64,000 nt of DNA from an uncultured Thermoleophilia bacterium (GCA_963715985.1 CAVQSP010000012.1:837-64836); one strand, 5' to 3'. Counted from the first letter of the stretch, positions 15,972 to 45,449 are shown. Notes: a model not told the origin generated them from the letters alone. Made by a program: numbers and translations.

Positions 15972-17507
15972 TCACAGGCTGCGGACGATGGCGGCGAAGT
16001 CGCCGGCGGCCACAGCCGCGGCCGCGGCCTCCAGCTCCGGCGCCAGGTAGCGGTCGCGACCGAGCGTCGGCGCGAAGCGCCGCACGAGGTCGCGTCCGGC
16101 TTTGGTCCCGACACCGGCCTCGAGCGGCGCCAGCAGGTCGATGGCCTGCGCCGCGCACAGCGCCTCTATGCCCAGCACGGTCTGCGCGTTGCGCAGCACG
16201 TCGAGCAGCTTGAGCGCCGCCGTCATGCCCATGCTCACATGGTCTTCCTGGTCGCCGGAACTGGGGATGGAATCCACGCTGGCAGGGTGGCACAGCACCT
16301 TGTTCTCGGACACGAGGGCCGCGGCGGTGTACTGGGCGATCATGTAGCCGTTGTTGAGCCCGCTGTCCCTGGTGAGGAACGGCGGCAGCTCGGAGAGCGA
16401 GCTGGTGAGCATGCGGAACGTGCGCCGCTCGCTGATGCTGGCGATCTCGCTCACCGCCATGGCCGCGAGGTCGAGCGCCAGGGCGAGCGGCTCCCCGTGG
16501 AAGTTGCCGGCGGAGATGATCTCGCCGCTGTCGGGGAACACGAGCGGGTTGTCGGTGACGGCGTCCACCTCGACGGCGATGACCTCGCGCAGCCAGCGCA
16601 GGGCGTCGCGGCAGGCGCCGTGCACCTGCGGGATGCAGCGCAGCGAGTAGGCGTCCTGCACCTTGTCGCAGTTGAGGTGGCTGAGCATGATGGCGCTGCC
16701 CTCGGTGGCGGCGCGCACGTGGCCGGCCGTCTGCAGCTGGCCGGGGATGGGGCGCAGCGCCTGGATGCGCTCCTGGAAGGGACCCACAGAGGCGCGCAGG
16801 CCTTCCAGGCTCATCGCGCCGATCAGGTCCGCCGAGTCCAGCAGCGCCTCGCCGTCGGCCACCGCCAGGCAGCCGATGGCGGCCATGAACTGCGTGCCGT
16901 TGAGCAGGCTCAGGCCTTCCTTGGCCTCGGGGACGAGGGGCGCGAGCCCTGCCGCCCGCAAGGCGGGCGCGGACGGCTCGCGCCGCCCGTCATGACTGAG
17001 CAGCTCGCCCTCGCCCATCATCGCCAGCACGAGGTGCGCGGACGGGGCGAGATCGCCGGAGGCGCCCAGCGAGCCCCGCGACGGCACCCACGGCACGATG
17101 TCGGCGTTGAGCATGTCGGCGACCATCTGCGCGACCGAGGCGCGCACGCCGGAGTGACCGCGGGCCATGGTGTTCAGGCGGATGACCATGGCGGCGCGCA
17201 CGGCGTCACGAGCCAGCGGCGCGCCGACGCCCACGGCGTGGCTGCGCACCAGGTTCTCCTGCAGCTCCTTCACCTTGCCGGCCGGGATGTGCGTGGTGGC
17301 CAGCAGGCCGAAGCCGGTGGTGACGCCGTACGCCACCTGCTCCTCCGCGATGACCCGGGCGATGACCTCGTGAGCGGCGGCGATGCGGTCCAGCGCGGCC
17401 CGGCCGAGGGAGACCTCGGCGCCGCCGCGCGCCACCGCCACCACCTGGTCGATGGTGAGCGGCGCGTCCCCGATCACGACGGGCGGCGGCGCGGACGTCC
17501 CGTTCAC
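15972..17507 (-). CDS. hutH: Histidine ammonia-lyase
   Basis: Intact 511-aa ORF with the MIO-forming triad in SLGASGDLAPSAH, plus GVTTGFG, NLVRSHAVGVG and DQEDHVSMG. The GTG start overlaps the sucD stop (GTGA). Confidence 0.9.
   Translation of the reverse strand: MNGTSAPPPVVIGDAPLTIDQVVAVARGGAEVSLGRAALDRIAAAHEVIARVIAEEQVAYGVTTGFGLLATTHIPAGKVKELQENLVRSHAVGVGAPLARDAVRAAMVIRLNTMARGHSGVRASVAQMVADMLNADIVPWVPSRGSLGASGDLAPSAHLVLAMMGEGELLSHDGRREPSAPALRAAGLAPLVPEAKEGLSLLNGTQFMAAIGCLAVADGEALLDSADLIGAMSLEGLRASVGPFQERIQALRPIPGQLQTAGHVRAATEGSAIMLSHLNCDKVQDAYSLRCIPQVHGACRDALRWLREVIAVEVDAVTDNPLVFPDSGEIISAGNFHGEPLALALDLAAMAVSEIASISERRTFRMLTSSLSELPPFLTRDSGLNNGYMIAQYTAAALVSENKVLCHPASVDSIPSSGDQEDHVSMGMTAALKLLDVLRNAQTVLGIEALCAAQAIDLLAPLEAGVGTKAGRDLVRRFAPTLGRDRYLAPELEAAAAAVAAGDFAAIVRSL

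Positions 17508-22545: not shown

Positions 22546-22549
<4 letters not shown>
22200..22549 (-). CDS. 2-oxoacid:ferredoxin oxidoreductase delta subunit (2x[4Fe-4S] ferredoxin); 3' end uncertain
   Basis: [52 protein letters not shown] carries two CxxCxxCxxxCP motifs. After about 75 aa all frames become Arg/Ala-rich and there is no in-frame stop before the alpha start. Candidate stops in other frames are at 22234 and 22200, so an indel probably hides the true end. Confidence 0.7.
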
Positions 22550-24219
<1,670 letters not shown>

Positions 24220-24542
24220 AGTGCCGCCTCGCTTCGCGGAGTTGGTTTCGGCATGCGGTCGCCCGCATTCATATGCTCACCCAGACTCACCCCGCGCCCG
24301 CGCGCCTTCAACCCGAGGGGCAGTGTGTCCAGCGAGCTGGACGCGTTTTCCCTCCCGCACACGGGACTCGTCCGCGATTCTGGACGAGACGGGGATGCCG
24401 GGAGCGCTCGAGCGTCATTCCCGCGACCGGCTTGAGCAGTGTCCGAGTGACGAGTTCAAGCAACGACACCGTTGGAAGTGCCGTTGCTTGAAAGGCCTGT
24501 CTCATAGGTCCTGCCAGGCGCCGCCCGCGAGAGCCGCCGGCA

Positions 24543-25289: not shown

Positions 25290-25334
25290 CGTTCCTCCAG
25301 AGTGTCACGGCTGAATGCCGGGGGGTTCCGGCGC

Positions 25335-27867: not shown

Positions 27868-28179
27868 GTACGTGTCCGTCACCTGGCTCCCGTGCTCCGC
27901 GGGGACCGGCTGCGGCGACGACCCGCAAGGGCGCGCGCGTGGTCCCGATTGCACAGCATGAAAGCAGCGGCGCCGGGCACGCGCAAGGCCCGCGGGCGCC
28001 GCGTCTTGGATGCTGGACGGTGTACGAGCGGCGGCCGGCAGGCCGCCGTCCTGGGAGCGCACTTTGCAGCGCGCCGCCGCGCCCGCTATCCTGAGCCGCA
28101 CGTGGCCCTTGGAGCGGTGCGTCTCGCGAGCCGCCACGAGGGCCGGCCGTGAGCCGTCGCGCGCGAGGGAGTCCCAGAC

Positions 28180-29049
28180 GTGTCTCAATCCCGATCGCCC
28201 AGCCCGGATGTGCCCGAGACGTCCGCCACGCGCGCCCTGGACGTGCTCGAGTTCCTCGCGCGCCGCACCTCGCCGGCCCCGGCCGCGATCATCGCCTCGT
28301 CGTGCGGCGTCCCCCGCTCCAGCCTCTACGCGCTGCTGCGGGTGCTCAAGGCGCGGCGCTTCGTCGTCTACCACGAGGACCAGAAGACCTGGAGCCTGGG
28401 GCCGGCGGCGCACGAGCTCAGCGCCGCGGCGCCGCTCTTCGCCCACGGCCTGGCCGTACTGCACGCCTTCGCCACCACGTCCAGACGCCTCACGCCCCGC
28501 GACATCGCGGCCGCGAGCGGCGTGCCGCGCTCGGTCGTGGACCGCATCGTGCCGCTGCTGCAGGAGAGCGACATGCTGCACTCCGAGGCCGACGGCACCT
28601 ACACGCTCGGCCTCGAGCTCGTGAGCCTGGCCTCGCGCGTGGCCGCCGTGGACTCGCTGCGCATTCTCGCGCGCGGGCCGCTCATGCAACTGCGGGACGC
28701 CACACAGGAGACGGCCAGCCTCATCGTCAAGGACGGCGACCACGGCCTCTACGTGGACCAGATCGAGAGCCGCTACGTGCTGCGCATCAGCAGCTGGGTG
28801 GGGCGGCGCGTGCCTCTGGAGAGCACGGCCACCGGCGCCGCCTTCGCCGACCCGAGCCGTGCTCACTTGGTGCGCGAGGCCGTCGAACCCGGCGTCACGG
28901 CCCTGGCCCGGGCTCTGGACATCGCGGAGCCGCAGGCCGCCATCAGCGTCCTCGCGCCCACCTGGCGGCTGCGCGAGTTCGGCGAGGGCAGAGCGACGGA
29001 GATCATCGAGGCGATCGCACGGCGCATCTCGGCCGCGGCGCGCAAGTAG
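28180..29049 (+). CDS. IclR-family transcriptional regulator (divergent paralog)
   Basis: Intact 289-aa ORF: RALDVLEFLARR..CGVPRSSLYALLRVLKARRFV..ETASLIVKDGDHGLYVDQIES..GRRVPLESTATGAAF. Confidence 0.88.
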   Translation: MSQSRSPSPDVPETSATRALDVLEFLARRTSPAPAAIIASSCGVPRSSLYALLRVLKARRFVVYHEDQKTWSLGPAAHELSAAAPLFAHGLAVLHAFATTSRRLTPRDIAAASGVPRSVVDRIVPLLQESDMLHSEADGTYTLGLELVSLASRVAAVDSLRILARGPLMQLRDATQETASLIVKDGDHGLYVDQIESRYVLRISSWVGRRVPLESTATGAAFADPSRAHLVREAVEPGVTALARALDIAEPQAAISVLAPTWRLREFGEGRATEIIEAIARRISAAARK

Positions 29050-30928: not shown

Positions 30929-31872
30929 GTCGTCCCCGTGTTCCTGTCGATGCCCATCATCGCCCGCGCCAGTCCATCGGCCATGAGGTTGGTGCTGATG
31001 GTCAGGGCCGCGATGAGGACGACCGGCGCGATGACCGCCCACGGCTGCACCGTGATGGCGATGCGGTTCTCGTTGATCATCAGGCCCCAGTCAGCGGCCG
31101 GCGGCTGCATGCCGAAGCCCAGGAAGGAGAGCGCGGCGATCATGATGATGGAGTAGGTGAGGCGCAGGCCGAACTCCACCAGCAGCGGGCTGCTGATGTT
31201 GGGCAGCACCTCGATGAAGAGGATCTTGCGCCGCGGCACACCGACGGCCGCCGCCGCCCTGACGAAGTCGCGCGCGGTCAATTCCACGGTGGCGGCGCGG
31301 GTCACGCGGGCGATGCGCGGCATGTGCGAGATGCCCACCATGAGCACGATCAGCCAGAGCTTGGGTCCCACGATGGAGACGAACAGCATCGCCAGCACCA
31401 CCGACGGGAAGGCGAGGACCACGTCGAGCATGCGCATGATGCTCTCGTCCACCCAGCGGCGCGCGTAGCCCGAGATGAGGCCGAGGCTGACGCCCAGCAC
31501 GATGCCGATCACGGTGGCGGCGATGCCGAGCACGAACACGCTGAGGCCGCCGTACAGCACGCGCGTCAGCACGTCGCGGCCGAGGAAGTCGGTGCCCAGC
31601 CAGTAGGTGGAGCTGGGCAGCGAGAACGGCGGCCCGACGAACTCCGTCGGCGAGTACGGCGCCACGTAGCGCCCGAACAGGGCGATGCACAGCAGCACCA
31701 TGAACACCGCGAAGCCGATCTTGGTGCGCCGCAGGTGCCAGGCGTCGATGATCGTCTGCACCCACTCGCGGCGCCCCCTGGCGACCAGCGGGACGGCATC
31801 GAGGTTCTCGAGAGGCTCGAGCGTCCCGAGCGGCTGGAGAGGATCGAGGCTGGCGTCGTCGCTCTGGCTCAT
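30925..31872 (-). CDS. ABC transporter permease (DppC/OppC type)
   Basis: Intact 315-aa ORF: WLGTDFLGRDVLTRVLYGG.., multi-pass. The start overlaps the upstream stop. Confidence 0.9.
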   Translation of the reverse strand: MSQSDDASLDPLQPLGTLEPLENLDAVPLVARGRREWVQTIIDAWHLRRTKIGFAVFMVLLCIALFGRYVAPYSPTEFVGPPFSLPSSTYWLGTDFLGRDVLTRVLYGGLSVFVLGIAATVIGIVLGVSLGLISGYARRWVDESIMRMLDVVLAFPSVVLAMLFVSIVGPKLWLIVLMVGISHMPRIARVTRAATVELTARDFVRAAAAVGVPRRKILFIEVLPNISSPLLVEFGLRLTYSIIMIAALSFLGFGMQPPAADWGLMINENRIAITVQPWAVIAPVVLIAALTISTNLMADGLARAMMGIDRNTGTT

Positions 31873-32837
31873 CGCAGTCCCGTCCGCAGCCGCGGGCTGA
31901 TGAGGATGGTGAGGATGTCGGCGATCAGATTGAGCACCACGTACACCGCGGCGATGAGCAGCACGAGCGCCTGCACCACCGGCATGTCACGGTTGGCCAC
32001 CGCGTCCACCAGCGCCGAGCCGATGCCGGGAAAGCCGAAGAGGTACTCCACGGTGACGATGCCGCCGGCCAGCCAGGCGATGTTGATGGCGATCACCTGG
32101 ATGGTGGGGACGATGGCGTTGGGCAGGGCGTGGTGCCACAGCACGCGCGACTCCTTGAGGCCCTTGAGGCGCGCCATCATCACGTACTCGCTCTCCAGCA
32201 CTTCGATGGTGGAGGCGCGCAACATGCGGCTCACGTAAGGGATCACGGCGAGGATCAGCGTGACCACCGGGAGGATGAAGAGGTCCATCTGGCCGCTGAG
32301 CGGCGCCCGCGAGTCCACGTTGGAGACCGAGGGCAGCCAGCTGAACACCGTGGTCGCAAAGATCAGGACCAGGACGATGCCGATCACGAACTCGGGCAGC
32401 GCCGCGAGGCTCAGGTTGGTGATGTTCATGGCGTTGTCGAACTTGGAGTCTCGCCACACGGCACTGAAGGCCCCGATGAGGATGGAGATGGGGATGCTGA
32501 ACAGCGCCGCCAGCGACACGAGGATGGCCGAGTTGATGACGCGCTGCTTGAGCAGCTCGGTGACCTTGGCGCCGCCGCCGACGAGGGAGTTGCCGAGGTC
32601 GCCGCGCACCACGTCGCCGAGCCAGCCCGTGTACTGCGAGACGACCGGCTTGTCCAGGCCTAGCTCCTTGCGCAGCGCCTCGTAGCGCACCTTGTCGGCG
32701 GAGTCCTTGCCGAGGATGGCCTTGGCCGCGTCGCCGGGCAGCGCCTGGGTGGCGAAGAAGACCACCACGGAGACGAGGAACAGCGTCAGGATCCCCAGGC
32801 CGAGGCGGATGAGCAGGAGTTTGAGCAGAGGGGGCAC
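31869..32837 (-). CDS. ABC transporter permease (DppB/OppB type)
   Basis: Intact 322-aa ORF: LLKLLLIRLGLGILTLFLVSVVVFFATQALPGD..EYVMMARLKGLKESRVLWHHALPNAIVPT. Confidence 0.9.
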   Translation of the reverse strand: MPPLLKLLLIRLGLGILTLFLVSVVVFFATQALPGDAAKAILGKDSADKVRYEALRKELGLDKPVVSQYTGWLGDVVRGDLGNSLVGGGAKVTELLKQRVINSAILVSLAALFSIPISILIGAFSAVWRDSKFDNAMNITNLSLAALPEFVIGIVLVLIFATTVFSWLPSVSNVDSRAPLSGQMDLFILPVVTLILAVIPYVSRMLRASTIEVLESEYVMMARLKGLKESRVLWHHALPNAIVPTIQVIAINIAWLAGGIVTVEYLFGFPGIGSALVDAVANRDMPVVQALVLLIAAVYVVLNLIADILTILISPRLRTGLR

Positions 32838-32931
32838 TAGATGATCCTGGGTGAGAGCGGTGGGCGCCGGGCGCCCCGGCCGAGAGGCCGGGGCGCCCGG
32901 TCACACCGGGAACAGCCGTCAGACGGCTTGC

Positions 32932-34593
32932 TCAACCGAAGTAGGCCAAACGATACCGCGCGTTGCTGGCGCAGGAGCCGAGGCCCGAGTAGTCGGGCAC
33001 CATGCCCATGACCGTCGGGGCCATCGCGTCCACCTGATTGTCGAAGGCGTAGACGATGTAGGCGCCCTCGTTGTACTCGATGGTGGCGGCCTGCGTGATC
33101 AGGTCGTTGCGGGCGGCGTCGTCGACCGTCTTGTAGGCCTCTTTGACGAGATTCATGTACTCCTGGTTGGTCGGCGCCCAGTGGGTCTCGTCGTAGAGCG
33201 CGCCGGGCATGGTGCCCATGCCGGTCTGGGCCAGGTACCCGCGGGTGCCCCAGTTGTCCATGGCGAAGCCCCACTTGAGGTACTGGTCGCCCCAGAACAC
33301 GTCGCCGGTGACGTTGTCCACCTTGACGGTGACGCCGGCGGCCTGCGCCTGCTGCGCGAACACCGTGGCCGCGGAGGGGGCGTTGTTGCTGACCGAGGTC
33401 GACGTGACGAGCTTGACCGTCATGTTCTCCTGGCCGGCCTGCTTGAGCAGCGACATGGCCTGCTCCAGATCCTGCTCGCGCTGCGGCAGGTCCTTGGGAT
33501 AGCCGGGGTCGAACGGCCCGTACATGTCGTTGCCGAGCCACTGCAGGCCGTCGGCGCCCTGGGCGATCATCTGCGGGCGGTCGACGATGAGGCGGAAGGC
33601 CTGGCGCACGCGCACGTCGTCGAACGGCTTGACGTCCACGTTCATCGTGAAGGGGATCCACGAGCCGGTCTTGGCTTCGAGCAGCACGTTGCCCGCGCCG
33701 GTGGCGATCTCGCGCTGCGCACCGGGGATCATGTTGACGTAGTCGACCGCGCCGCCGAGCAGGGCGTTCATCTGTGCCGTGGTGTCGGCGAACTCGATGA
33801 TGGAGAGCTGGTCGACGTATGCGCCGCCGTCCTGGCGCCAGTAGTTCTCGTTGCGGGCCATGACGCACTGCACGCCCGGCTGGAAGTCGCCCGGGGCCGC
33901 GAGCTTGAACGGGCCCGTGCCGATGACGCCCTCGCCGCCCTTGGGGTCGTAGCCCACCGGGACGACGGCCGCGCTGTAGGTGGCCAGCGCCTCCTTGAAG
34001 ATCGCGTTGGCCTCTTCGAGGTTGAACTGCACCGTGAGGTCGTCGATCTTCTTGGTGCCGCCCGGCGCGAGGCCGCGCAGCTGCGCCGCGGCGAGGCCGG
34101 GGCTCTTGGGGTTCATGATCCGCTCGAAGCTGAAGACCACGGCGTCGGCGTTCACCGGCGAGCCGTCGTGGAACACCAGGTCCGGCTTGAGCTTGATCGT
34201 GTATTGCGTGCCGTCCGCATTGGGCTCGAGGGACTCCGCGAGCGCCATCCCGAGCACGCCCTCGTTGCTGTACTCGAGCAGCGAGTCGTACAGGTTGAAG
34301 CGCATGTCCATGGACTGCATGGTGTAGGCGGTGGCGTGCGCGTCCAGGTCCTCCTTGGCGGAGCCCTGGCCGGCGGCCACGCGCAGGTGGCCGCCCATCA
34401 CCGGCGTGCCGGCGGCGGCAGACGACGAAGCCGCCGGGCTCGCGCTGGAACTGGAGCTGCTGCTGGAGCCGCACGCCGCGGCGGTCGTGCCGAGCGCCGC
34501 GACCGCCCCGACCGCGGCTGCGCCCTGCAGGACCTGGCGCCGAGTGATCTCCTTGGACAAGAATCCCAGATCTTCGCTGTCTCGTGTGCTCAT
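32932..34593 (-). CDS. ABC transporter substrate-binding lipoprotein, family 5, with a Tat-type signal
   Basis: ATG 34593 follows AAGGGGGAG. The N-terminus is MSTRDSEDLGFLSKEITRRQVLQGAAAVGAVAALGTTAAAC-GSSSSSSSSASP.., which shows a twin-arginine motif, a lipobox Cys and a Ser-rich linker. The body is typical SBP_bac_5 (FHDGSPVNADAVVFSFER..GTGPFKL..). Confidence 0.9.
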   Translation of the reverse strand: MSTRDSEDLGFLSKEITRRQVLQGAAAVGAVAALGTTAAACGSSSSSSSSASPAASSSAAAGTPVMGGHLRVAAGQGSAKEDLDAHATAYTMQSMDMRFNLYDSLLEYSNEGVLGMALAESLEPNADGTQYTIKLKPDLVFHDGSPVNADAVVFSFERIMNPKSPGLAAAQLRGLAPGGTKKIDDLTVQFNLEEANAIFKEALATYSAAVVPVGYDPKGGEGVIGTGPFKLAAPGDFQPGVQCVMARNENYWRQDGGAYVDQLSIIEFADTTAQMNALLGGAVDYVNMIPGAQREIATGAGNVLLEAKTGSWIPFTMNVDVKPFDDVRVRQAFRLIVDRPQMIAQGADGLQWLGNDMYGPFDPGYPKDLPQREQDLEQAMSLLKQAGQENMTVKLVTSTSVSNNAPSAATVFAQQAQAAGVTVKVDNVTGDVFWGDQYLKWGFAMDNWGTRGYLAQTGMGTMPGALYDETHWAPTNQEYMNLVKEAYKTVDDAARNDLITQAATIEYNEGAYIVYAFDNQVDAMAPTVMGMVPDYSGLGSCASNARYRLAYFG

Positions 34594-34826
34594 ATCCGCT
34601 CCCCCTTGTGCATGACAGTCATCGGTCGAATGCTGCGGCGGCCAGAACGAGAGTGCCGGCGAAGGAAACGGAGCGCCCACGCCCCCCACGTGGTACACGA
34701 GGACGGGACCGCCCTTCTTGCCGTATCGCGCATCATACGCGGATTCGTTGCGCCTTGGGACCCGCGAAGGGGCCCGCGGTCCAGGATGTCGGACACGTTT
34801 TGCGGCCCGACGGGCGCGTGAGGCGC

Positions 34827-35673
34827 TCAGCGCCCGGCCCAGAGCTCCGCCGCCGTGAGGCCGAGCTCGTCCTCCACGGCGGCGCGGTAGGCGGCGATGG
34901 CGCGGCGGGTGACGGGGCCGGGTGGGGCGTCGAACACCCGGCCCTCGATGGCCGCGACCGCCTGGACCTCGCGGCCCGCGCCGCCCAGGAACGCTTCGGC
35001 GGCGGCGAGCGCGTCGCCGGTGCGGCACACGCGCTCGTCCACGTCCAGGTGCCGCAGCATCAAGCGCCGGGTGATGGAGTCCAGGATGCCCTCCGTGAGT
35101 GGCGGCGTGCACAGGTCACCCTCCGGGGTGACCCAGAAGAACGCCGCCTGCTGCACCTCCATCACGCGACCGTCCGGCGTCGTGAGCAGCGCCTCACTGA
35201 AGCCGCGCTCCTCGGCCATCCGCCGGGCCAGCATGTTGCCGGCGTAGGCGAGGCTCTTGGAGCCGCCGAGCACGAGCCTGGGCACGTCGGTGACGAAGGC
35301 CAACCGCACCGGCGGCCAGTCGCCGGTGGGCTCCAGGAACACGATGCGCCGGCCGCCCCGCGTGAGCACGATGCGCAGGCCGGCGGAGACTGGTCCGGCC
35401 CATGCGAACACGGCGGCGATCTCCGCCTCGCAGCCGTTCGCGAGGGCAGGACAGCCGCAGCCGGCCGCACGTCCGCTCCAGGCGGTCCAGGTGCTCGCCG
35501 AGCGTGAACGGCCGGCCCAGGTAGCAGCGGATGTACTCGAAGGCGCCGTCGCCGCGCAGCAGGCCGTCGTCGTAGAGCGGCACCGTGGCCGTGGCCGCGT
35601 CGCAGAGCACACCGTCCACCGATGCCGGCATGCGCACACCGCCGGGCCCGAGAGGGGCGGCGTCACCCGGCAT
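34827..35673 (-). pseudogene. Class IV (branched-chain / D-amino-acid) aminotransferase, 1 frame change
   Basis: The N-terminal part is in frame 35194..35673 (..VPLYDDGLLRGDGAFEYIRCYLGRPFTLGEHLDRLERT). The C-terminal part is in frame 34827..35666 (..LRIVLTRGG..GGSKSLAYAGNMLARRMAEERGFSEALLTTPDGRVMEVQQAAFFWV..TPPLTEGILDSITR). The shift is near 35450. Confidence 0.8.
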
Positions 35674-37798
35674 CAGCGCCCGGCTCGACCTTCTCCACGC
35701 GCACCTCGACGGACTTCATCAGCGGGAACCCGCTCACGGGGTCGAAGCGGTCGTCGTGCGTCACCAGATTGATGTTGGCCTGCGCCCAGCCGTGCGTCAC
35801 CTGCAGGCTGCCGCGGCGGATCTCGTTGGGCGCCATGACCTTGACCGGCACGTCCACGGACGCCGATGCGCGATGTGATCCTCACGAGGTCGCCGTCAGC
35901 CACCTTCAGCGAGGCGGCGTCGTCCGGGTGCATCTCCACCTCGGGGCCGGGGATGGCGGTGAGAAAGCGTGGGATGTTGCGGAACCTGCTGTGCATGTAC
36001 AGCAGCTTGCGCGCCCCCGTGATGAGGACGAAGGGGAACTCCGGGTCGGGCGACTCCAGGTACGCGGGCGAGCGGTACACCGGCAGCTCGTCGAAGCCCC
36101 AGCCCGCCGAGGTACGCCGACACGAACTCGATCCTGCCCGAGGGCGTACCGAAGGTGAGCTCGTCCTGCTCGCGCTCGCCGCCCGTGCCCGCCTCGCCGC
36201 CTCCCTCGCCCGCGCCGGCAGCGTCGCTCGCGGCGCCCGCGCCGGCGTACACGACGCCCTCGGGATGCGCCGCCAGGTCCTCGTAGGTGAGCCCCGACGA
36301 CTCGAGCAGCCAGCGGTTGAGCGCGGTCTCGTCCTCCCAGGGGAAGAAGTCGGCGGCGCCCAGGCGCGCGGCCAGGTCGCGCCAGAACTCGTACTCGCCC
36401 TGCACGTCCGGCAGGCTGAGGACCTGGTTGGTGAGGGTGATGACCTGGTGCTTGGCGTGCGCGTGCAGCTCGGTGCGCTCGAGGAACGAGGCGGCCGGCA
36501 GCACGTAGTCCGCCAGGGCGGCCGTCTCCGTCATGAACAGGTCGCGGACCACGAGCAGGTCGAGGGCCTCGAACGCCTCGCGGATGCGCGTGGAGTTGGC
36601 GTTGGTCACCACCGGGTTGGCGCCGGTGACGATCATCGCCCGCAGCGGGTAGGGGTCGTCGTGAAGGATGGCGTCCACCGCACTCATCGTGTGGCACTCC
36701 TGGCGCAGGTCGTAGAGCACGGGGAAGCGCTCCGCGCCGATGGGGCCCAGCTCGCGGAGCGGGAGCTCGTCGTACACGGTGAGCTCGCGCAGCGCCGGCG
36801 CCGCCTTGAAGCGCGTGCCGCCGGCTTGGCCGATGGTGCCCAGCAGCGCGTCGAGCATGGCCACCGCGCGGATGTTGTTGACGCCGTTCTCGTGGTGCTC
36901 GAGACCGTTGCCGGCGTACAGAGCCACGCGCGGGGCGGCGGCGGCCATGGCGCGGGCCATCGCCCGCACGGTGGCCGCGTCCACGCCCGTCTCGCGCTCT
37001 ACCACCTCGGGGGTGAAGGCCTTGGCGTACTCGGCCGACCTGCGGGAAGCCGAGCGTGTATCTGGCCACGAACTCCTTGTCGTAGGCGCCGCTCTCGATC
37101 AGCAGGTGGACGATGCCCCACGCCAGGGCGCCGTCGGTGCCGGGGCGCACCGCCGCGTGCAGGTCGGCGCGCCGCGCCATGGCCGAGAGGCGCGGGTCCA
37201 CCACGATGAGGGTGGCGCCTTTGCGGCGCGCGTCGCTGACGTAGCTGGTCATGTTGGGGTGCGCGTAGGGCAGGTTGGCGCCCCAGATCAGCACGCACTC
37301 GGCGTTCTCCAGGTCCGGCGTGGGCCAGCCGCCGTCCACCAGCGTGAAGCCCGCGTACCGGGCCGCGAAGCACTGCGAGTCGTTGGAGAAGTAGTTGGGG
37401 CTGCCGATGGCGTGGATGAAGCGCCGCGCCAGCGTCTCCTGCTGGCCGAAGCCGATGGCCTCGCCCTTCCACACGCTGAGGCTGCGGAGACCGTACTGCT
37501 CGCCGATCGCCACGAGGCGCGCGGCGATCTCGTCGAGCGCCTGCGCCAGCGGGATCTCCTCCCAGCCGCCTTCGACGCGCTTGAGCGGCGCGAGCAGGCG
37601 GTCCGGGTGATAGACCATGTCGACCGCGGCGCGCGCCTTGACGCACAGGCGGCCGCGGTTCCAGGCGTGGTGCTCGTTGGCGGTGATGTCGACGATGCGC
37701 CCGTCCTCCAGGTGCACCTCGATGCCGCAGCGGTCGTCGCACATGCGGCAGAGGGTGCGCACGGTCGTGCGTTCGGCGGCCACGTCAGCGCTCCCCAC
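35663..37798 (-). pseudogene. Molybdopterin (bis-PGD) oxidoreductase catalytic subunit, DMSO-reductase/formate-dehydrogenase superfamily, at least 3 frame changes
   Basis: The N-terminal [4Fe-4S] motif is CRMCDDRCGIEV..(27)..C, followed by ..WGANLPYAHPN..ATLIVVDPR (35906..37798). It continues ..YAGNGLEHHENGVNN..VTGANPVVTNAN..DLLVVRDLFMTETAALADYVLPAASFLE (35896..37005); ..FPFVLITGARKLLYMHSRFRN..EVEMHPDDAASLKVADGDLVRI (35673..36080); and ..VTHGWAQANINLVTHDDRFDPVSGFPLMKSVEVRVEKV* (35663..35857). Confidence 0.8.
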
Positions 37799-38270
37799 GG
37801 CCCGGACGCGCGAGGCGCCGCAAGCTGATGTCCAGCGCCTCGCGGCGCGCGTCGGCGGCCTCGTCGGCGTCTACGAACTGCAGCGCCCCCGAGGTGCAGA
37901 AGCGCACGCAGTCGGGGTCGCCGCCGCAGAGGTCGCACTTGCGGCTCACACCCAGCTCGCCGTCGAAGTGGATGTTGCCCATGGGGCAGGCGAGCAGGCA
38001 CATCTTGCAGCCGGCGCAGTGGTCGCGGTCGATCTCCACGGCGCCCGTGCTCTCGTCGCGGCTGATGGCGCCGGCCGGGCACACCTCCAGGCACCAGGCC
38101 TCGGAGCAGTGCATGCAGGTGAGCGGGATGCAGGCGTGGTCCTCGGCGTAGAAGTTCACGCGGATGAGCGACGCCGAGCGCGCGAAGTCGCCGCTCTGGC
38201 GAAAGGCGCAGGCGTACTCGCAGTCGCGGCAGGCCACGCACAGGTCGGGATCGGCGACGACGATGCGCAC
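37785..38270 (-). CDS. 4Fe-4S dicluster electron-transfer protein (DmsB/HybA-like beta subunit)
   Basis: Intact 161-aa ORF with four Cys clusters (CVACRDCEYAC, CMHCSEAWCLEVCP, CAGCKMCLLACP, CDLCGGDPDCVRFC). It overlaps the Mo-enzyme start. Confidence 0.88.
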   Translation of the reverse strand: MRIVVADPDLCVACRDCEYACAFRQSGDFARSASLIRVNFYAEDHACIPLTCMHCSEAWCLEVCPAGAISRDESTGAVEIDRDHCAGCKMCLLACPMGNIHFDGELGVSRKCDLCGGDPDCVRFCTSGALQFVDADEAADARREALDISLRRLARPGRGER

Positions 38271-38273
38271 GAC

Positions 38274-39549
38274 TCAGCCTCCTCTCGCAGTGCCGGCCAG
38301 TCCCGCCGCCCGCAGGTCGCGCCGGCGGGCCGGGCTCGCCAGGTCTCTTCCCTCGATGAACGAAAGCAACTCGGGCAGCGCCCGTCGCCAGCGCACGTAG
38401 GGGCGCAGGCGGCCGAGCACCACGGCGCCCTCGGTGCCGCCGAGGGCGACGGCGCCGGCCGGCACGCCGCCGCGGCTCACCAGCTTGAAGTACTCGACGC
38501 CGGCGACGTCGCGCAGCAGCGTGACGTCGTCGCCGTCCTCTTCCACGAAACGACCGAGCGAGGCCACAGTCAAGCCGAACATCTCCGTGACGTTCATGCT
38601 GAGGCTGCCGCGGTACGTGACGCCGGCGCCGGCGAGGTTGGCGCCGGCCACCTTGCCCTGCTCCACCGCCGTGGGCCACAGCGCGTGGATCTCCGGCGGT
38701 CCGCCGGCGGCCGTGGGCCCGCGCGTCACGTCGCCGGCCGCGTACACGCCGGGGACCGACGTCTGCATGGTGGCGTCCACGGGGATGCCGGGCGCGCCCG
38801 GCTCGAGGGCCTGCTCCAGCAGCTCGTCGTTGGGGCGTGCGCCCGTGGCGACGATGACGGCGTCCACGGTGAACGGGTCGAGGCCGCCGGCGCAGACGCG
38901 CACGGCGCCGCCCTCGTCCTCCAGGGCCTCCGTGCTGCGTGCCCGTGTGGATGGGCACGCCGTAGCTCTCGATGCGCTCGTGGAGCAGGCGCGCGGCCGG
39001 AGCGTCCAGCACGCGCGGCATGATGCGCCGGTCGAGCTCGACGACGGTCACCTCCAGGCCGCGGTAGCGCGCCGCCCACGCGGCCTGCAGCGCCACGAAC
39101 CCTGAACCGAGCACGAGCGCCCGCGCCCCGGGCCGCAGCAGCGGGTCGAGGCGCACGGCGTCGGCGAGGGTCCAGAGGTGGTGGACGGCGGGGTGGTCGA
39201 GCCCGGGTATCGGGGGCCGCGCAGGCCGCGAGCCGGTGGCCAGCAGCAGGCTGTCGAAGGCCAGACGGCGCCCGCCGGCCAGCGCCAGCGTGCGGGCGCC
39301 CACATCGAGGCCGTCGACGCGCACCCCGGAGACGAGGTCGGCGCCCATGCGCGAGTAGTACTCGGGGCCGCGGATCACGAGGCCGTCACGCGACACCTTG
39401 CCGCGCAGGAAGTACGGCAGCAGCACGCGGGAGTACGCCGGTCCGGGCTCCTCGCTGATCAGCGTGACCGCGGCGTCGCGCTCGTGGCGGCGGAAGCTCT
39501 CGAGCGCGCTCAGCGCGGCCGCGCTGTTGCCGACGATGGCGAGGTGCAC
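38274..39549 (-). pseudogene. FAD/NAD(P)-dependent pyridine-nucleotide-disulfide-family oxidoreductase, 1 frame change
   Basis: GTG 39549 lies 2 nt after the MttB7 stop. VHLAIVGNSAAALSALE is the dinucleotide fold and ALVLGSGFVALQAAW is a second Rossmann fold (37288..41076 frame). It then continues in ORF 38274..38903 (..VIVATGARPN..VPGVYAAGDVT..). The shift is near 38930. Confidence 0.8.
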
Positions 39550-39551
39550 CG

Positions 39552-41006
39552 TCAGCGCCCCTCGCCGCCCGCGAAGCCGGCCACCAGTTCGTCCGCGCGG
39601 GCGGCCACGTCCGCCGGCAGCGGCGGGACCTCGTGCGTGGCGAGCAGCTCGGCGGCCTTGCGCCGCGCCTTGGCGGCGAGGTCGAGGCCGCCGCCGGCCA
39701 GCCAGTTCTCGCGGCCGTCCCGGTTGAGGATCGTGGGGCGCCACTGCACCTCTCTCATGTGGCGCCGCGTGTGCTTGCTGCCCATGAAGTGGCCGCCGGG
39801 GCCGGTCTGCGCGATGACGTCCACGGCCAGGGTCTCGGCATCGACCTCCACGCCGCGCAGCAGCCGCCGGTTGGAGGCGATGAACTCGTCCACCATCACG
39901 ATGCTCTCCAGCGAGCCGGTGAGGCCGAAGTCCAGGTAGCCCACGTCGTGGGCCAGGTTGGAGCCGGCCTGCATGGCCAGCAGCGTCATCTGATTGGCCT
40001 CCATGCCCATCTGCGCGTCCAGCACCTGGCTGTCGCTGGTCCCTGCGTTCCCCCAGTTGGGCAGGTCCAGCCACTTGGCCATCTCCACGGCACACATGTA
40101 GCCCATCTGGTAGCCGAGGTCGTTGTAGCTGGACTGGGCCGTGGCGATGTCCAGCACGGCCGAGCCGATGCCGAAGAGGAACGGCGCGCCCGGGACGCGC
40201 AGCTGGTGCATCACGAGGCCGAACAGGCACTCCGCGATGCCCTGCGCCGTGTGCCCCGCCACGGTGATGGGCGCCGTGGCCCCCGCCAGCGGCGCCGGCG
40301 AGTAGTTGGTCGGCACGCCGGCGTCGGCGCAGAGCAGCAGCTTCTCCACGCTGTCCGGGGGGTGCACGAGCGGGCTGGTGGGCTCGTTGTACATGATGAA
40401 GTACGGCTTCTCCCGCAACTCGTCTGCGCCGCCGCGCAGCGCCCGCGCGATCTCGATCATCACGGCCAGGTCGCGCGCGTTCTCGGCCGTCATCACCAGC
40501 GGCTTGGTGGTGTTCTGCAGCATCGCGAGGAAGCTCACCAGGTACGCCCTGTGCGGGTCCTCGTCGGTGGGGTGGGCCGAGCTCATCACGAAGTCGATGT
40601 CCGGCAGCGCGTCGCACAGGCGGGCCGCGCGGCGCACGTCCTCGAGCACGCTGGGCCGGTGCTCCCCGGTCTCGAGGTCGTAGGTGGACATGAGGTCGGA
40701 GCCGGTGCCGAAGTAGCTGTTGTAGCCGCCCAGCTCCATGGCCGGCTCGCCCGCGCGGTCGTACACGTCGATCACGGACGGCGCGGTGCCGCGCGCCTGC
40801 TCCACGAGCTCCCGCGGGATGAGGATGCGGTCCTCCGTGGTCAGCGTGCAGCCCGCCTCGAGCAGCATCGCTTTGGCTTCGTCGTGGTGGACCTGCATGC
40901 CGACGGCGCCGAGGATCTCGAGGACGGCCTCGTAGATGTCGAGCTTGGCCTGTTCGCTGAGGAAGCTCAAGTGGCCGATGCGAGATGCGTTGCGAAGGGT
41001 CTTCAC
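39552..41006 (-). CDS. MttB-superfamily methyltransferase, paralog 7 (long class, intact)
   Basis: Intact 484-aa ORF MKTLRNASRIGHLSFLSEQAKLDIYEAVLEILGAVGMQVHHDEA..APITVAGHTAQGIAECLFGLVMHQL..GPGGHFMGSKHTRRH.. It was used as the reference for the broken paralogs. Confidence 0.9.
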   Translation of the reverse strand: MKTLRNASRIGHLSFLSEQAKLDIYEAVLEILGAVGMQVHHDEAKAMLLEAGCTLTTEDRILIPRELVEQARGTAPSVIDVYDRAGEPAMELGGYNSYFGTGSDLMSTYDLETGEHRPSVLEDVRRAARLCDALPDIDFVMSSAHPTDEDPHRAYLVSFLAMLQNTTKPLVMTAENARDLAVMIEIARALRGGADELREKPYFIMYNEPTSPLVHPPDSVEKLLLCADAGVPTNYSPAPLAGATAPITVAGHTAQGIAECLFGLVMHQLRVPGAPFLFGIGSAVLDIATAQSSYNDLGYQMGYMCAVEMAKWLDLPNWGNAGTSDSQVLDAQMGMEANQMTLLAMQAGSNLAHDVGYLDFGLTGSLESIVMVDEFIASNRRLLRGVEVDAETLAVDVIAQTGPGGHFMGSKHTRRHMREVQWRPTILNRDGRENWLAGGGLDLAAKARRKAAELLATHEVPPLPADVAARADELVAGFAGGEGR

Positions 41007-41065
41007 GGGGTGTGCTCCTGACTCGTCCTGGTCCGCCGCGCCGGCTCCGGCGCCGGCAAGCGGAC

Positions 41066-41100
41066 GGCGCCGGCACGCTGGGGGCGAGCGTGCCGGCGCC
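41066..41100 (-). terminator. Perfect 14-bp GC hairpin downstream of the SAM-methyltransferase gene
   Basis: GGCGCCGGCACGCT-(7 nt)-AGCGTGCCGGCGCC. It lies about 140 nt after the stop at 41238 and upstream of the MttB7 start. There is no U-tract. Confidence 0.4.
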
Positions 41101-41237
41101 TGTCGCTGACTGCGGCGGCTGTCATGTGCCCGACACGAGCATCCGCGCCGCCGCGGCGATCACGGTTCCACGACGCCGGCGCGCGAGTGACATCGCCAGT
41201 AACACGGCTCCGATTCTGTAGCGCGCCCGCCCGCGGG

Positions 41238-41966
41238 TCAAGCCGGGCGCGTCGCGTTCCCGAATGCTGGACAACAAACGCCGGCGGGCTCCATGCCCTT
41301 CGTGATGGCGAAGAACAGGCTGGAAGCGTCGACCTCGACCATCTCGAGCTGTGCGTCGCAGCCTGCGAGAGCCCGCCGCACGTCCTCCGGGTCCACCGTG
41401 CCCGCGGTGAAGCCGTCACTGCAGACGATGGCGCCGTCCCCGGTCCGCTCTCTGTCGATAGGGCCTATCAGGCCGGCCTCGGCCTGCGCCTCGAACCACG
41501 CAAGCCGCTCGTTCCAGAAGCGATCGCTGTACGTGGAGAGCAGCAGCAAGCCCCCGGGGCGCGTGACGCGCAGCAGCTCAGTCACCAGTAGGCGCACGTC
41601 CACGTGAAACGCAGACGCGCCGTTCTGGATGCAGGCGACCACATCGAACGAAGCGTCGGCAAAGGTCAGCGCGGTCGCGTCCATGCGCGCGAAGAGGCAG
41701 TTGGGCACAGCGCGCAGTCCGGCAGCTGCGAGGGCAAGGCTTTCGGCAGACGTGTCGACGCCGACCACGAACCGCGCTGACTCCGCGAATGCCGGTACTG
41801 CCCTGCCGTAGCCGCACCCGACGTCCAGCAGCGTGTCGCCCGGAGTGAGCCGGGACACGACGTAGTCGATCTCGCCGCGGAGGTACTGTTGAACGCGTGG
41901 CGACGCGAGCTCGTAGCAGAGGCGCAGAGACTCAGCGCTCAGACGCCGCATGTAGTAGCCCTCCAT
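41238..41966 (-). CDS. Class I SAM-dependent methyltransferase
   Basis: The 242-aa part of ORF 41238..42527 from MEGYYMRRL, preceded by the RBS GGAAGGAAAG. Motif I is LLDVGCGYG. It also has ..FDVVACIQNG..LRVTRPGGLLLL. Confidence 0.85.
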   Translation of the reverse strand: MEGYYMRRLSAESLRLCYELASPRVQQYLRGEIDYVVSRLTPGDTLLDVGCGYGRAVPAFAESARFVVGVDTSAESLALAAAGLRAVPNCLFARMDATALTFADASFDVVACIQNGASAFHVDVRLLVTELLRVTRPGGLLLLSTYSDRFWNERLAWFEAQAEAGLIGPIDRERTGDGAIVCSDGFTAGTVDPEDVRRALAGCDAQLEMVEVDASSLFFAITKGMEPAGVCCPAFGNATRPA

Positions 41967-42186
41967 CCCGCTTTCCTTCCTCGCGTCACTGCCATCCACG
42001 GCCACCATACCCGCGCACGGCGTGGCACCGTGCCCGTGTGCGTTGCCGTCCAGCGTGCTGGACGGCGCCCCGCCTGGGTGTGAATCCCCTCGAGGCTGAC
42101 CTATAGTCCTGACCGCGGGACGGGGCCGCCGCTTGCGGTGCCCTCGCCCTGCTGCCGGCTTCGGGCTCAGTCTGGAAGGAGACTCC

Positions 42187-43711
42187 GTGACCATCATCCT
42201 GGACGGCGCGTCGCTGACCGTCGAGAAGCTCGTGCGCATCGCTCGTGACGGCGAGACGGTCGAGCTCGACCCCGCCGCGCTCGAGCGCATCAAGGTGTGC
42301 CGCGCCATGCTCGAAGAGAAGATCGTGGCCCGCGAGATCATGTACGGCACCAACACCGGCATCGGCGAGTTCTCGGAGATCGTGCTCGACGACGACCAGG
42401 TGCAGCAGTTCCAGCGCTTCCTCGTGTACAACCACGCCGCCGGCATCGGCGAGCCGGCGCCGATCGAGGTCGTGCGCGCCGCCATGGCGGCGCGCGTCAA
42501 CGTCCACGCGCACGGCAACTCGGGCAACCGCCCGCGAGATCACGCAGACGCTGGTCGAGCTGCTCAACAAGGGCGTCACGCCGGTCATGAGCTCCAAGGG
42601 CTCGGTGGGCGCCTGCGGCGACCTCGCCCCCATGGCCCAGATGGCGCTGGTCATGATGGGCGAGGGCGACTCGTTCTACCAGGGCGAGCGCATGCCCAGC
42701 CGCGAGGCGCTCGAGCGCGCCGGCATCCCGGTCCCCGGGCTGGAGGCGCGCGACGGCCTGGCCACGATCAACGGCTCGAACGTCCTCACGGGCATGAGCG
42801 CGCTGCTCTGCTGGGACGCCGACCGCTGGCTGCGCCAGGCCGAGATCGCCGCGGCGATGAGCCTCGAGGCGCTGCTCGCCAACCTCAAGCCGTACAACAG
42901 CAAGCTGCACGAGCTGCGCGGCTTCTCCGGCGCCGTGCGCAGCGCGGCAGCCATCCGCGCCTGCATCCAGGACAGCGACCTCGCCACCGGCAAGATCAAG
43001 ACCAAGGTGCAGGACGCCTACTCGATGCGCTCGACGCCGCAGGTCGTCGGGGCCGCTCACGACGCGCTCAAGTGGGCGAAGAGCCAGGTGGAGATCGAGC
43101 TCAACGGCGTCGGCGACAACCCGATCTGGGTACCCGAGGAGAAGCTGACGCTGACCGGCGCGAACTTCCAGGGCACGCCGGTCAGCCTCCCCATGGAGAT
43201 GGTCGGGCAGGCCATCACCATGGTCAGCGTGCTCAGCGAGCGCCGGCTCAACCGCATGGAGAACACCGCGACGAGCCAGGGTCTGCCGGACTTCCTGACG
43301 CCCAACCCCGGCTTCTACAGCGGCCTCATGCTCAGCCAGTACACCGCCGACATGCTCATCACCGAGCAGCGCATCCTGTCGGCGCCGGCCAGCACCATGA
43401 GCATCCCGGCGGCGGCCGACCAGGAGGACTTCGTCTCGATGGGCATGAACACCGCCCTCAAGAACCGCCAGATCCTCGAGAACGCCTACGGCGTGCTCGG
43501 CATCGAGCTCATGGCCGCGGCTCAGGCGCTCGACTTCCGCGACTTCACGCCCGGCAAGGGCGTGCGCGCCGCCAAGGCCGTCATCCGCAGGCACGTCGAC
43601 CACCTCGACGTGGACAGGCCGCTCTTCCCGGATCACAACGCCATGGCCGCGCTTGTGGCGTCGTGCGAGATCCTGGACGCCGTGGAGGCGGCCGTCGGCC
43701 CGCTGGGCTGA
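42187..43711 (+). pseudogene. Histidine/aromatic-amino-acid ammonia-lyase family protein (second copy) with Ala-Cys-Gly at the MIO position, 1 frame change
   Basis: GTG 42187 follows GGAAGGAG. The N-terminal part is in the 42133 frame (VTIILDGASLTVEKLVRIARDGE..YGTNTGIGEFSE..FLVYNHAAGIG..HGNSG). The rest is in ORF 42245..43711 (..EITQTLVELLNKGVTPVMSSKGSVGACGDLAPMAQMAL..INGSN..DAYSMRSTPQVVGA..NGVGDNP..ADQEDFVSMG). The shift is near 42530. Confidence 0.82.
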
Positions 43712-43788: not shown

Positions 43789-45449
43789 ATGGACGAGAAG
43801 ACGGTCCACGCCCAGCTCGCCGAAGTGGGTCTGCGCGTGGGCACGGTGCATCGCAACCTCCCATCGCCAGAGCTCACGGCGCGCTCCCTGGCGCGCAAGG
43901 AGGGCATCCTCGCCGCCAACGGCGCCCTGGTGGTGACCACCGGCGAGCGCACGGGGCGCTCGCCGCAGGACCGCTACATCGTGGCCGATGAGGGCGCCGC
44001 CGGCGTAGCCTGGGGCGGCGCCAACCAGCCCTGCTCGACGGAGGTGTTCGACCACCACCTGCGGCTGGCGAGCGCGTTTCTGCGCGGCCGCGATGCCTAC
44101 GTGTTCGACGGCTTCGTGGGCGCCGAGCCCGCGTACCGCCTGCCGGTGCGAGTGGTGGCCGAGGCGACGTGGCACGCGCTGTTCGCGCACACGCTGCTGG
44201 TACGCCCGGAGCCCGTCGACCTCGAGGGCTTCGAGCCGGGCTTCACGGTCATCGCCTGCGGCGCTCTCCGGGCGGACGACGCGGCGGCCGCGGGCGCGTC
44301 CCTGGGCTTCGCGACGAGCGCGGGCGCGCCCCTGGCTCCGCGGCGGGCGCCGGACCCGGCGCCTCCGGCACGTTCGTCGGCATCTCGTTCAGCCGCCGCC
44401 TCGTGCTCATCCTCGGCACCGAGTACGCCGGCGAGATCAAGAAGGCGCTCTTCTCCGTCATGAACCACCTGCTGCCGCCGCGAGACGTGCTGCCCATGCA
44501 CTGTTCGGCCACGGCCGGCAAGAACGGCGACGTGGCCTTGTTCTTCGGTCTCTCCGGCACCGGCAAGACCACGCTCTCGGCCGATCCCACGCGGCGCCTC
44601 ATCGGCGACGACGAGCACGGCTGGAGCGACCACGGCGTGTTCAACTTCGAAGGCGGCTGCTACGCCAAGGTCATCAGGCTGTCGGCGCGCGCCGAACCGC
44701 AGATCTTCCAGGCCATCCGCTTCGGCTCCGTGCTCGAGAACGTGGTGGTCGACCCGCAGACGCGAGCCATCCATTGGGACGACGACTCCATCACCGAGAA
44801 CACGCGCGCCACCTACCCCGTTGATCACATCCCGGGCGCCGTCGTCACGGGCGAGGGCGGCACGCCCCGCAACGTCTTCTTCCTGGCAGCAGACGCCTAC
44901 GGCGTGCTGCCGCCCATCGCCCGGCTCACCCCGGAGATGGCGAGCTACCACTTCCTCTCCGGGTTCACCGCCAAGGTGGCCGGCACCGAGGCGGGCGTCG
45001 ACGAGCCGGCGCCCACCTTCTCCGCCTGCTTCGGAGCGCCCTTCATGCCGCGCGACCCGGTGACGTACGCCACCATGCTCGCGGAGCGGCTGGCGCACGC
45101 GCCCACGCACTGCTGGCTGGTGAACACGGGCTGGTCGGGCGGGCCGTACGGCGTGGGCAAGCGCATGCGCATCTCGCTCACGCGCAACCTGCTCAAGGCG
45201 GCGCTCAGCGGCTCGCTCGAACACACGCGCATGACGCCGCACCCGGTGTTCGGATTCCTGGTGCCGGAGCACTGCCCGCACGTGGCGCCACGCTTTCTGG
45301 ACCCGCGCTCGACGTGGACCGACGGCGAAGCCTACGACCGGCAGGCGGCGGCGCTGGCGCAGCACTTCGCCGCCAATTTCGCGCAGTTCGAGGGGCGCGT
45401 GCCGCCCGCGGTCGCGGCCGCCGGCCCGCGTCTGGACACAGGAGGATGA
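43789..45449 (+). pseudogene. pckA: Phosphoenolpyruvate carboxykinase (ATP), 1-2 frame changes
   Basis: The N-terminal part (..GALVVTTGERTGRSPQDRYIV..) is in the 42133 frame. The rest is in ORF 44169..45449 with [20 protein letters not shown], the kinase-1a motif [13 protein letters not shown] and IGDDEHGW. The shift lies between about 44270 and 44370. Confidence 0.85.

Follow-up and report, generated by a model that had tools for sequence, protein, structure and literature searches.

The HAL2 locus and its reading frame

The gene discussed here, HAL2, encodes a member of the histidine ammonia-lyase (HAL) family and lies at 42187..43711 on the plus strand of a 64,000-nucleotide (nt) stretch of DNA from an uncultured Thermoleophilia bacterium (GCA_963715985.1 CAVQSP010000012.1:837-64836). 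The whole of this stretch is referred to as the window, and coordinates are counted from its first letter; relatives are labelled as L-numbered loci, G-numbered genomes, and P-numbered proteins. The codons gcc tgc ggc at 42611..42619 (+) encode Ala142-Cys143-Gly144, which aligns with Ala142-Ser143-Gly144 of P. putida HAL, the precursor triad of the 4-methylideneimidazol-5-one (MIO) cofactor. The middle residue is a cysteine and departs from the Ser-type MIO triad; on either side of it, Ala, Gly, and the flanks (GSVG...GDLAP) agree with the canonical motif. A sequence-only reading of the window had reported these codons and the translation GSVGACGDLAP, and both were found as it described, within the C-terminal open reading frame (ORF) KGSVGACGDLAPMAQ and in frame with the C-terminal part of the PF00221 gene. 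That reading had also placed a HAL-family gene at 42187..43711. The gene is there, but it is not a single ORF, as the interval is 1525 nt long, is not a multiple of three, and is read in two frames, the frameshift having been missed.

The N-terminal segment of HAL2 (codons 1-116, 42187..42534, +) is read in the first frame from a GTG start at 42187, and its translation covers positions 1-107 of PF00221. A ribosome-binding site, GGAAGGAG, was read from the sequence at 42174..42181 (+), 5 nt 5' of the start codon, and the relatives begin with the same VTIILDG N-terminus as HAL2. This segment holds Tyr53 (42343-42345) and Asn82-His83 (42430-42435). The motifs YGTNTGIGEFSE and FLVYNHAAGIG, which had been noted earlier, are present in this frame and not in that of the triad. 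The C-terminal segment (codons 117-507 plus the stop codon, 42536..43711, +) is read in the second frame and its translation covers PF00221 positions 106-465.

The two segments are separated by a single extra C at 42535 (CGCCCG[C]GAGATC, +), 76 nt 5' of the triad, which causes a +1 frameshift. This base is the sole gap in a 1525-nt DNA alignment with L001 (93% nucleotide identity) and L002 (86%). A scan for frame switches based on G+C content at third codon positions (GC3) places the switch at 42530, recovering the same site, and the tblastn match to the L014 orthologue breaks at 42534/42536. The first frame ends HAHGNSGNRPRD and the second resumes REITQTLVELLNKGVTP. Skipping 42535 gives a 507-residue protein with zero internal stops, and its junction sequence, HAHGNSGNRPEITQTLVEL, is found exactly in 17 of the 120 closest database proteins, nearly all of which are exactly 507 residues long.

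The HAL2 clade and the interchange of serine and cysteine

A scan of species-representative genomes returned 587 stretches encoding relatives of HAL2, and all counts for 80 loci refer to the best 80 of these. The proteins of the best 80 are 73-95% identical to HAL2 and come from Thermoleophilia/Actinomycetota, Anaerolineales and other Chloroflexota, Acidobacteriota, Ignavibacteriota, Bacteroidota, Spirochaetales, Planctomycetaceae, WOR-3, and Rhodospirillaceae metagenome-assembled genomes (MAGs). Among the representatives of a library clustered at 50% identity, the closest one shares 58% identity with HAL2, only two more full-length proteins are 50-51% identical, and the full-length matches that follow are at most 43% identical. 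The clade as a whole is tight, its members being 73-96% identical. HAL2 (507 residues) is thus placed in a distinct and widespread branch of predicted histidine ammonia-lyases. Between Actinomycetota, Chloroflexota, Ignavibacteriota, Bacteroidota, and Planctomycetota the HAL2 proteins are 73-77% identical, far above what is usual for HutH, and this unusual conservation across phyla sets the clade apart; it would imply that horizontal transfer has been frequent or that constraint is unusually strong.

Both triads are common in the clade. Ala-Ser-Gly (ASG) was found in 73 and Ala-Cys-Gly (ACG) in 47 of the 120 closest proteins, and the 80 species-level loci divide into 49 with ASG and 31 with ACG. 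The minimum number of changes between serine and cysteine is 8 on a tree of 121 proteins (strongly supported branches require 3 of these), 12 on the tree of 80 loci, and 19 on a tree of 200 sequences, which provides 8 independent pairs on well-supported branches. It had been asked earlier whether ACG homologues form a clade of their own. The window copy does belong to a well-supported clade of 27 proteins, 26 with ACG and one with ASG, but ACG and ASG interchange across the wider clade. In an alignment of 37 sequences, G138, S139, V140, G141, A142, G144, D145, L146, A147, and P148 are invariant and position 143 alone varies. No column was found to co-vary significantly with the Ser/Cys state, a comparison of low power as it draws on only 8 well-supported independent pairs.

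The codons at the middle position of the triad in the 80 loci are AGC (31), AGT (2), TCC (11), TCG (4), and TCA (1) for serine, and TGC (21) and TGT (10) for cysteine, which shows that both serine codon families, AGY and TCN, are in use. A cysteine codon (TGY) is one mutation away from each of the two families. Cysteine is the intermediate observed at position 143, and threonine was found in none of the triads. TGY may have served to connect AGY with TCN, each a single step away. In the wider HAL family, ACG was found in 10 of 150 representatives, 3 of them outside the HAL2 clade (P0153, P0197, and P0207, at most 43% identical). Two of these three have Arg and Leu at the positions of HAL Gln277 and Tyr280, like the branch of the superfamily that lacks MIO.

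Family, fold and active site residues

Profile and structure comparisons were made with the read-through protein, in which 42535 is skipped. HAL2 matches PF00221 (Lyase_aromatic) over its full length, at 529 bits against a cut-off of 27.3, covering positions 1-465 of the 466 in the profile. When the unedited DNA is searched, the match falls into two frames. Of the PDB structures, P. putida HAL is the closest by sequence, at 295.6 bits, followed by T. acidophilum HAL at 294.8 bits. An AlphaFold2 (AF2) model of P0008, which is 96% identical to HAL2, has a predicted template modelling score (pTM) of 0.82 and a template modelling score (TM) of 0.90 to 1b8f, and it shows the fold common to HAL and phenylalanine ammonia-lyase (PAL).

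Residue numbering is collinear with that of P. putida HAL through residue 214, which makes Cys143 the exact counterpart of HAL Ser143. HAL2 keeps Y53, H83, N195, Q275, Y278, R281, F327, E413, and D145, which match Y53, H83, N195, Q277, Y280, R283, F329, E414, and D145 of the P. putida enzyme. We take Tyr53 of P. putida HAL to be catalytic, His83 and Glu414 to bind the imidazole, and Asn195, Gln277, Tyr280, and Arg283 to bind the carboxylate, while Asp145 and Phe329 are needed for cyclisation, as the structures of HAL mutants (1gk3, 1gk2, and 1eb4) indicate. The catalytic and histidine-binding residues vary little or not at all in the clade alignment, and the cyclisation residues D145 and F327 are invariant.

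HAL2 can be compared with several characterized members of the superfamily. P. putida HAL (HutH, EC 4.3.1.3; PDB 1B8F and 1GKM) has the same fold and the same length as HAL2 and the residues listed above, and some HAL2 relatives are linked to hutU in their genomes. However, the two enzymes are only about 35-40% identical, HAL2 scores below the cut-off of the HutH equivalog model TIGR01225, and its motifs differ (YGTNTGIGEFSE, NH for SH, INGSN, NFQGTP, and DQEDFVSM). The probable HAL of T. acidophilum (PDB 7TQR), the second-best PDB match, aligns over the full length of HAL2 and shows MIO in its crystal sequence, but its precursor is Ala-Ser-Gly, it belongs to another clade, and it is about 34% identical in the structural alignment. 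The tyrosine 2,3-aminomutase SgTAM (PDB 2OHY) is also similar (281 bits, TM 0.88) and depends on MIO. Unlike SgTAM, HAL2 has a HAL-type (S/N)-His selectivity dyad, and its probable genomic partner is urocanase and not an enediyne or nonribosomal peptide synthetase (NRPS) cluster; it does not reach the cut-off of TIGR03832, the equivalog model for tyrosine 2,3-aminomutase (367 versus 501 bits).

Ergothionase from T. denticola (PDB 6S7J) and the histidine betaine lyases Swoo_3913, SO_3057, and SO_3299 share the superfamily and fold with HAL2; they act on imidazole-bearing substrates, and some are found in methylated-histidine contexts. Ergothionase and the Shewanella histidine betaine lyases have no MIO triad (bioRxiv 10.1101/2025.08.13.670108; 10.64898/2026.04.22.720169). 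In these trimethylammonia-lyases the X-Ser/Cys-Gly triad is absent and a trimethylammonium leaving group is needed, whereas HAL2 keeps the triad and its flanks. The match of HAL2 to 6S7J is 190 bits compared to 295 for P. putida HAL. A role for HAL2 as an ergothionase or a histidine betaine lyase was considered and ruled out, given the presence of the triad and this weaker similarity.

Maturation of MIO from cysteine and the function of HAL2

We propose that Ala142-Cys143-Gly144 would cyclise autocatalytically, as Ala-Ser-Gly does, with the cysteine side chain being eliminated as H2S and not as H2O. The mature MIO would then be chemically identical to that derived from serine. A mature cofactor with no memory of its precursor would make serine and cysteine nearly neutral alternatives, and their repeated interchange between invariant flanks is most simply explained if both precursors mature to the same MIO. 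An engineered HAL S143C described by Langer, Lieber and Retey in 1994 reportedly matures to active enzyme. That substitution was a laboratory mutation, whereas the cysteine in the HAL2 clade is natural, heritable, and frequent (~40%). The earlier suggestion that a natural cysteine could still yield MIO is supported by the ASG/ACG interchange in near-identical orthologues with invariant flanks, and also by the genomic positions of the ACG copies, which occur at hutH positions beside hutU or as the sole HAL-family gene of a genome that encodes urocanase.

The gene hutU adjoins the lyase in 6 of the 80 loci. In L018 and L056, both of which have ACG, hutU starts 108 nt and 33 nt, respectively, after the lyase stop codon on the same strand. 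Ten genomes were searched completely, and in six of them, which also encode urocanase, the clade member is the single PF00221 gene; three of the six have ASG (G002, G004, and G005) and three have ACG (G007, G008, and G010). No universal gene partner was detected by ORF clustering across the 80 loci; the commonest clusters came from shadow ORFs on the lyase itself or from lineage-specific synteny, such as the LmbE-like and HDAC-like genes in Anaerolineales. The hutU context and the conserved histidine-binding residues point to free L-histidine as the most likely substrate of HAL2 and to urocanate as the product. HAL2 would thus deaminate L-histidine to urocanate, which would be passed on to urocanase.

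The sequence-only reading had taken the divergent motifs to suggest a substrate other than free histidine. This does not agree with the retention of all the histidine-binding residues, and YGTNTGIGEFSE and NH are signatures of the clade that are shared by copies in hutH-hutU operons. Its view of HAL2 as an enzyme beyond ordinary HutH is likewise countered by the relatives, since the ACG homologues appear by comparison to be ordinary HutH enzymes, and with this the suggestion that the cysteine could mark an altered, exotic chemistry is removed. Overall, we consider it likely that HAL2 is an ordinary histidine ammonia-lyase in which MIO is formed from cysteine with loss of H2S, and that the insertion at 42535 is more probably an artefact.

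Neighbouring genes

The canonical HutH paralogue was confirmed at 15972..17507 with a standard ASG triad, as had been reported earlier, with the correction that it lies on the minus strand. Its translation reads GSLGASGDLAP, YGVTTGFG, and NLVRSHAVGVG (SH switch), and it passes the TIGR01225 cut-off with 655.6 versus 539 bits. Urocanase is encoded by hutU at 22546..24276 (-), recognized by tblastn at 89% identity to the L014 urocanase; it lies 18 kb from HAL2 and beside the canonical system. Located 5' of hutU are a gene for a corrinoid protein (24666-25304, -; Pfam B12-binding) and, 5' of both, an MttB gene (25335-26789, -; MTTB match). Downstream of HAL2 is the gene for phosphoenolpyruvate carboxykinase (PEPCK; 43789..45431, +), which is out of frame, with a partial Pfam PEPCK_ATP match, a split tblastn match, and a DNA alignment with L014.

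Two methyltransferase genes lie close to HAL2. One encodes a class I S-adenosylmethionine (SAM)-dependent methyltransferase of 242 residues (41241..41966, -; Pfam Methyltransf_11/25) and is divergent from HAL2. The other encodes an MttB-superfamily methyltransferase (39555..41159, -; PF06253, 270 bits). No homologue of the SAM methyltransferase was found in 82 related loci, and on this ground it was ruled out as a functional partner of HAL2. The MttB superfamily has about 55-60 genes in the genome (89 match fragments), with copies in the window at 9660-16000, 25335-26789, and 39555-41159, and with this many genes the adjacency of one of them to HAL2 carries little weight. The sequence-only reading had drawn on the neighbouring methyltransferases in arguing for a substrate other than free histidine, and neither gene bears this out, the one having no homologue in related loci and the other being too numerous.

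A gene for an IclR-type regulator lies at 28153..29049 (+) and was identified by Pfam (HTH_IclR and IclR_C), blastn synteny, and the L001 gene table. Its orthologue is directly 5' of the HAL2 orthologue in L001, L011, and L014, whereas in the window the two genes are ~13 kb apart (28.99-42.08 kb). The interposed block (28990-42080), all on the minus strand, encodes an Opp-type ATP-binding cassette (ABC) transporter (SBP_bac_5, two permeases, and a fused ATPase), a molybdopterin oxidoreductase, a ferredoxin, a flavin adenine dinucleotide (FAD) reductase, and the MttB and SAM methyltransferases. Comparison with the IclR-HAL2 order of the relatives indicates that the methyltransferase adjacency is specific to this genome. 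A looser association with MttB does recur in Thermoleophilia, as seen in the gene order of L014, the MttB-corrinoid-hutU block of the window, and the four PF00221 loci beside MttB genes. If these MttB proteins are demethylases, HAL2 would most simply act on the released histidine.

Other PF00221 genes and pyrrolysine

The genome encodes further PF00221 genes. A third HAL paralogue, in the region of G000:C3:85233-86675 and C3:89874-91482, has an ASG triad, LVTSCCTGVG at the HAL Ser-His dyad, and an insertion; it adjoins an MttB gene, and a diverged urocanase-like gene with a broken frame, 44-54% identical to HutU, lies nearby. This locus could encode a pathway that handles another imidazole or aromatic compound. 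The fourth PF00221 gene (G000:C3:102790-104100; L006-L010) reads GSIGAS-DLPP with no Gly, is fragmented, and adjoins two MttB genes. An intact 473-residue version is found at L001:1609-3721 by an octopine-dehydrogenase-like gene and three MttB genes. The fourth gene presumably encodes a protein without MIO and is a candidate MIO-less lyase.

About ten of the MttB genes contain a single in-frame TAG, and the catalytic domain of PylS is encoded at C13:559328-560053 (316 bits versus a cut-off of 178). It is probable that the organism decodes pyrrolysine and that it makes use of methylamines or quaternary amines. A dimethylamine methyltransferase gene (Dimeth_Pyl) at L002:511-1917, beside a gene for a B12-binding radical SAM protein, appears in the gene calls as two parts, 344 and 95 residues long, a split that is consistent with an in-frame pyrrolysine TAG.

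Alternative readings of HAL2 and of the extra base

Several observations weigh against an ordinary, cysteine-matured HAL at this locus. HAL2 falls below the cut-off of TIGR01225 (496 versus 539.15 bits) and just below that of the subfamily model NF006871 (521 versus 524). We infer the formation of MIO from a natural cysteine in the HAL2 clade from comparisons of sequences, and the active-site loops of the AF2 model are of low confidence and have nothing to say on the environment of Cys143. No hut gene lies beside the lyase in 74 of the 80 loci. The genome also has a canonical hutH beside MttB genes, with hutU ~5 kb off in the same block, and the presence of both canonical genes means that HAL2 could be redundant or specialised here. 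With respect to the extra base, the frames of rpoB and rpoC, which were checked as error sentinels, are intact, indicating an indel error rate that is uneven or moderate and not high everywhere, and the extra C does not extend a homopolymer.

An assembly error is nevertheless the likelier cause of the frameshift at 42535 when compared with a recent pseudogene. Genes of the window were compared by tblastn and DNA alignment with the ORFs of L014, a Thermoleophilia MAG that is presumed to have been assembled from short reads. A single additional G at ~21607 (CCC[G]GAC) splits the gene for a subunit of pyruvate:ferredoxin oxidoreductase (PFOR), and 35 extra bases near 44279-44333 break the PEPCK frame; these bases look as though a ~25-nt stretch of the pattern CGCGGGCGCG(T/C)CCCTGG had been imperfectly duplicated in tandem. 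One MttB gene of the window is spread over four frames, and hutU and several other genes are intact. That other window genes are broken relative to L014 makes an assembly error the likelier explanation for HAL2 as well. Genome-wide, around a third of the 55-60 or so MttB genes are fragmented, as is one of the four PF00221 loci, and the GC3 scan returned ~570 candidate frame switches, a rough upper bound as the scan is noisy from antisense shadows and was run without a control genome. The other possibility is that this copy is a real and very recent pseudogene, truncated by the +1 shift after the Tyr53/His83 region and before the triad, with the canonical HutH (15972-17507) left to deaminate histidine. 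The frameshift is present in the assembly, canonical hutH and hutU are in the genome, the ~13 kb of inserted genes part HAL2 from its usual IclR neighbour, and both the unbroken rpoB and rpoC and the position of the inserted base outside any homopolymer are in favour of this possibility. However, the lyase gene has only one lesion in 1525 nt, the ratio of nonsynonymous to synonymous substitution rates (dN/dS) is 0.13-0.14 against its closest ACG relatives, the genes broken relative to L014 include those of central metabolism (the PFOR subunit and PEPCK), and the fragmentation of a third of the MttB paralogues fits assembly indels better than mass pseudogenisation. We therefore regard a pseudogene as possible though doubtful, and the insertion would instead be a consensus error of an indel-prone assembly. 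If it is an artefact, the organism probably makes full-length HAL2. Frameshifts of this assembly will break gene calls in this genome.

The same proneness to indels could raise the question of whether TGC itself should read AGC or TCC, the cysteine codon being an error of sequencing or assembly. The errors observed in this assembly are indels and not substitutions, L001 and L011 have TGC at the same codon, and 26 of the 27 proteins in the clade of the window copy come from other assemblies, with cysteine in 25 of those 26. The TGC is not a chance error, and an artefact of this kind is hardly conceivable. It is also very unlikely that Cys143 is left unconverted, with a thiol that persists and either supports a different chemistry or accompanies a mechanism independent of MIO. 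Members of the superfamily that lack MIO do exist (PDB 6s7j and other MIO-less representatives), but the known MIO-less lyases have lost the triad together with Tyr280 and did not simply exchange Ser for Cys (bioRxiv 10.1101/2025.08.13.670108). In the HAL2 clade there are at least 12-19 Ser/Cys interchanges in otherwise near-identical orthologues with nothing co-varying, the cyclisation machinery (G141, A142, G144, D145, and F327) is invariant, and ACG copies are found in hutH-hutU pairs. A more substantial alternative, unlikely as we judge it, is that HAL2 acts on a modified histidine, for example one that is N-alpha-methylated and arises from MttB/corrinoid demethylation of histidine betaine, as part of an IclR-controlled MttB-hutU module in Thermoleophilia. 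The gene orders hutU(-) MttB(-) IclR(+) HAL2(+) in L014 and MttB x3, IclR, HAL2 in L001 and L011 are suggestive of such a module, as are the co-orientation of hutU with MttB and corrinoid-protein genes in the window, the hutH gene that abuts MttB genes, the location of all four PF00221 loci of the genome beside MttB genes, the clade-specific motifs (GIGEFSE, NH, NGSN, NFQGTP, and DFVSM), and the score below the HutH equivalog cut-off. Against this, a protein that is 73-77% identical is the sole HAL-family gene product alongside urocanase in Chloroflexota, Ignavibacteriota, and Bacteroidota, where plain hutH-hutU pairs occur, and all the residues that bind free histidine are conserved. Adjacency is weak evidence in a genome with ~55-60 MttB genes in 4.35 Mb, and the characterized enzymes for trimethylated histidine have no triad (bioRxiv 10.1101/2025.08.13.670108; 10.64898/2026.04.22.720169). 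Moreover, if MttB demethylates fully to histidine, HAL2 is still an ordinary HAL. A fuller version of this idea is a little less probable again, namely that HAL2 of Thermoleophilia would carry out the deamination in an MttB/corrinoid-linked pathway for N-methylated histidines (e.g., histidine betaine) under IclR control, possibly accepting partly methylated histidine, and that the Cys-derived MIO would be an adaptation of a mostly anaerobic branch and not neutral. We retain the reading of HAL2 as an ordinary HAL that matures its MIO from cysteine.

Implications

In textbooks and reviews the serine in the middle of the MIO triad is taken to be invariant, and variation is acknowledged at the first position only (PMC9002059; PMC3903478). 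Our literature searches, aimed at a natural Ala-Cys-Gly triad and at S143C, found no relevant report. The finding is most likely a real but modest biochemical curiosity in an otherwise ordinary histidine ammonia-lyase gene. A branch of HAL that spans phyla, has cysteine in ~40% of its members, and has switched repeatedly between cysteine and serine would be the natural counterpart of the 1994 S143C experiment, and it would imply that MIO can mature by elimination of H2S in vivo. Motif searches that annotate or mine MIO enzymes should allow for X-Cys-Gly. The HAL2 clade also supplies ready-made enzyme pairs for studies of MIO maturation, and it may serve as a clean example of cysteine bridging both serine codon families at an essential site.

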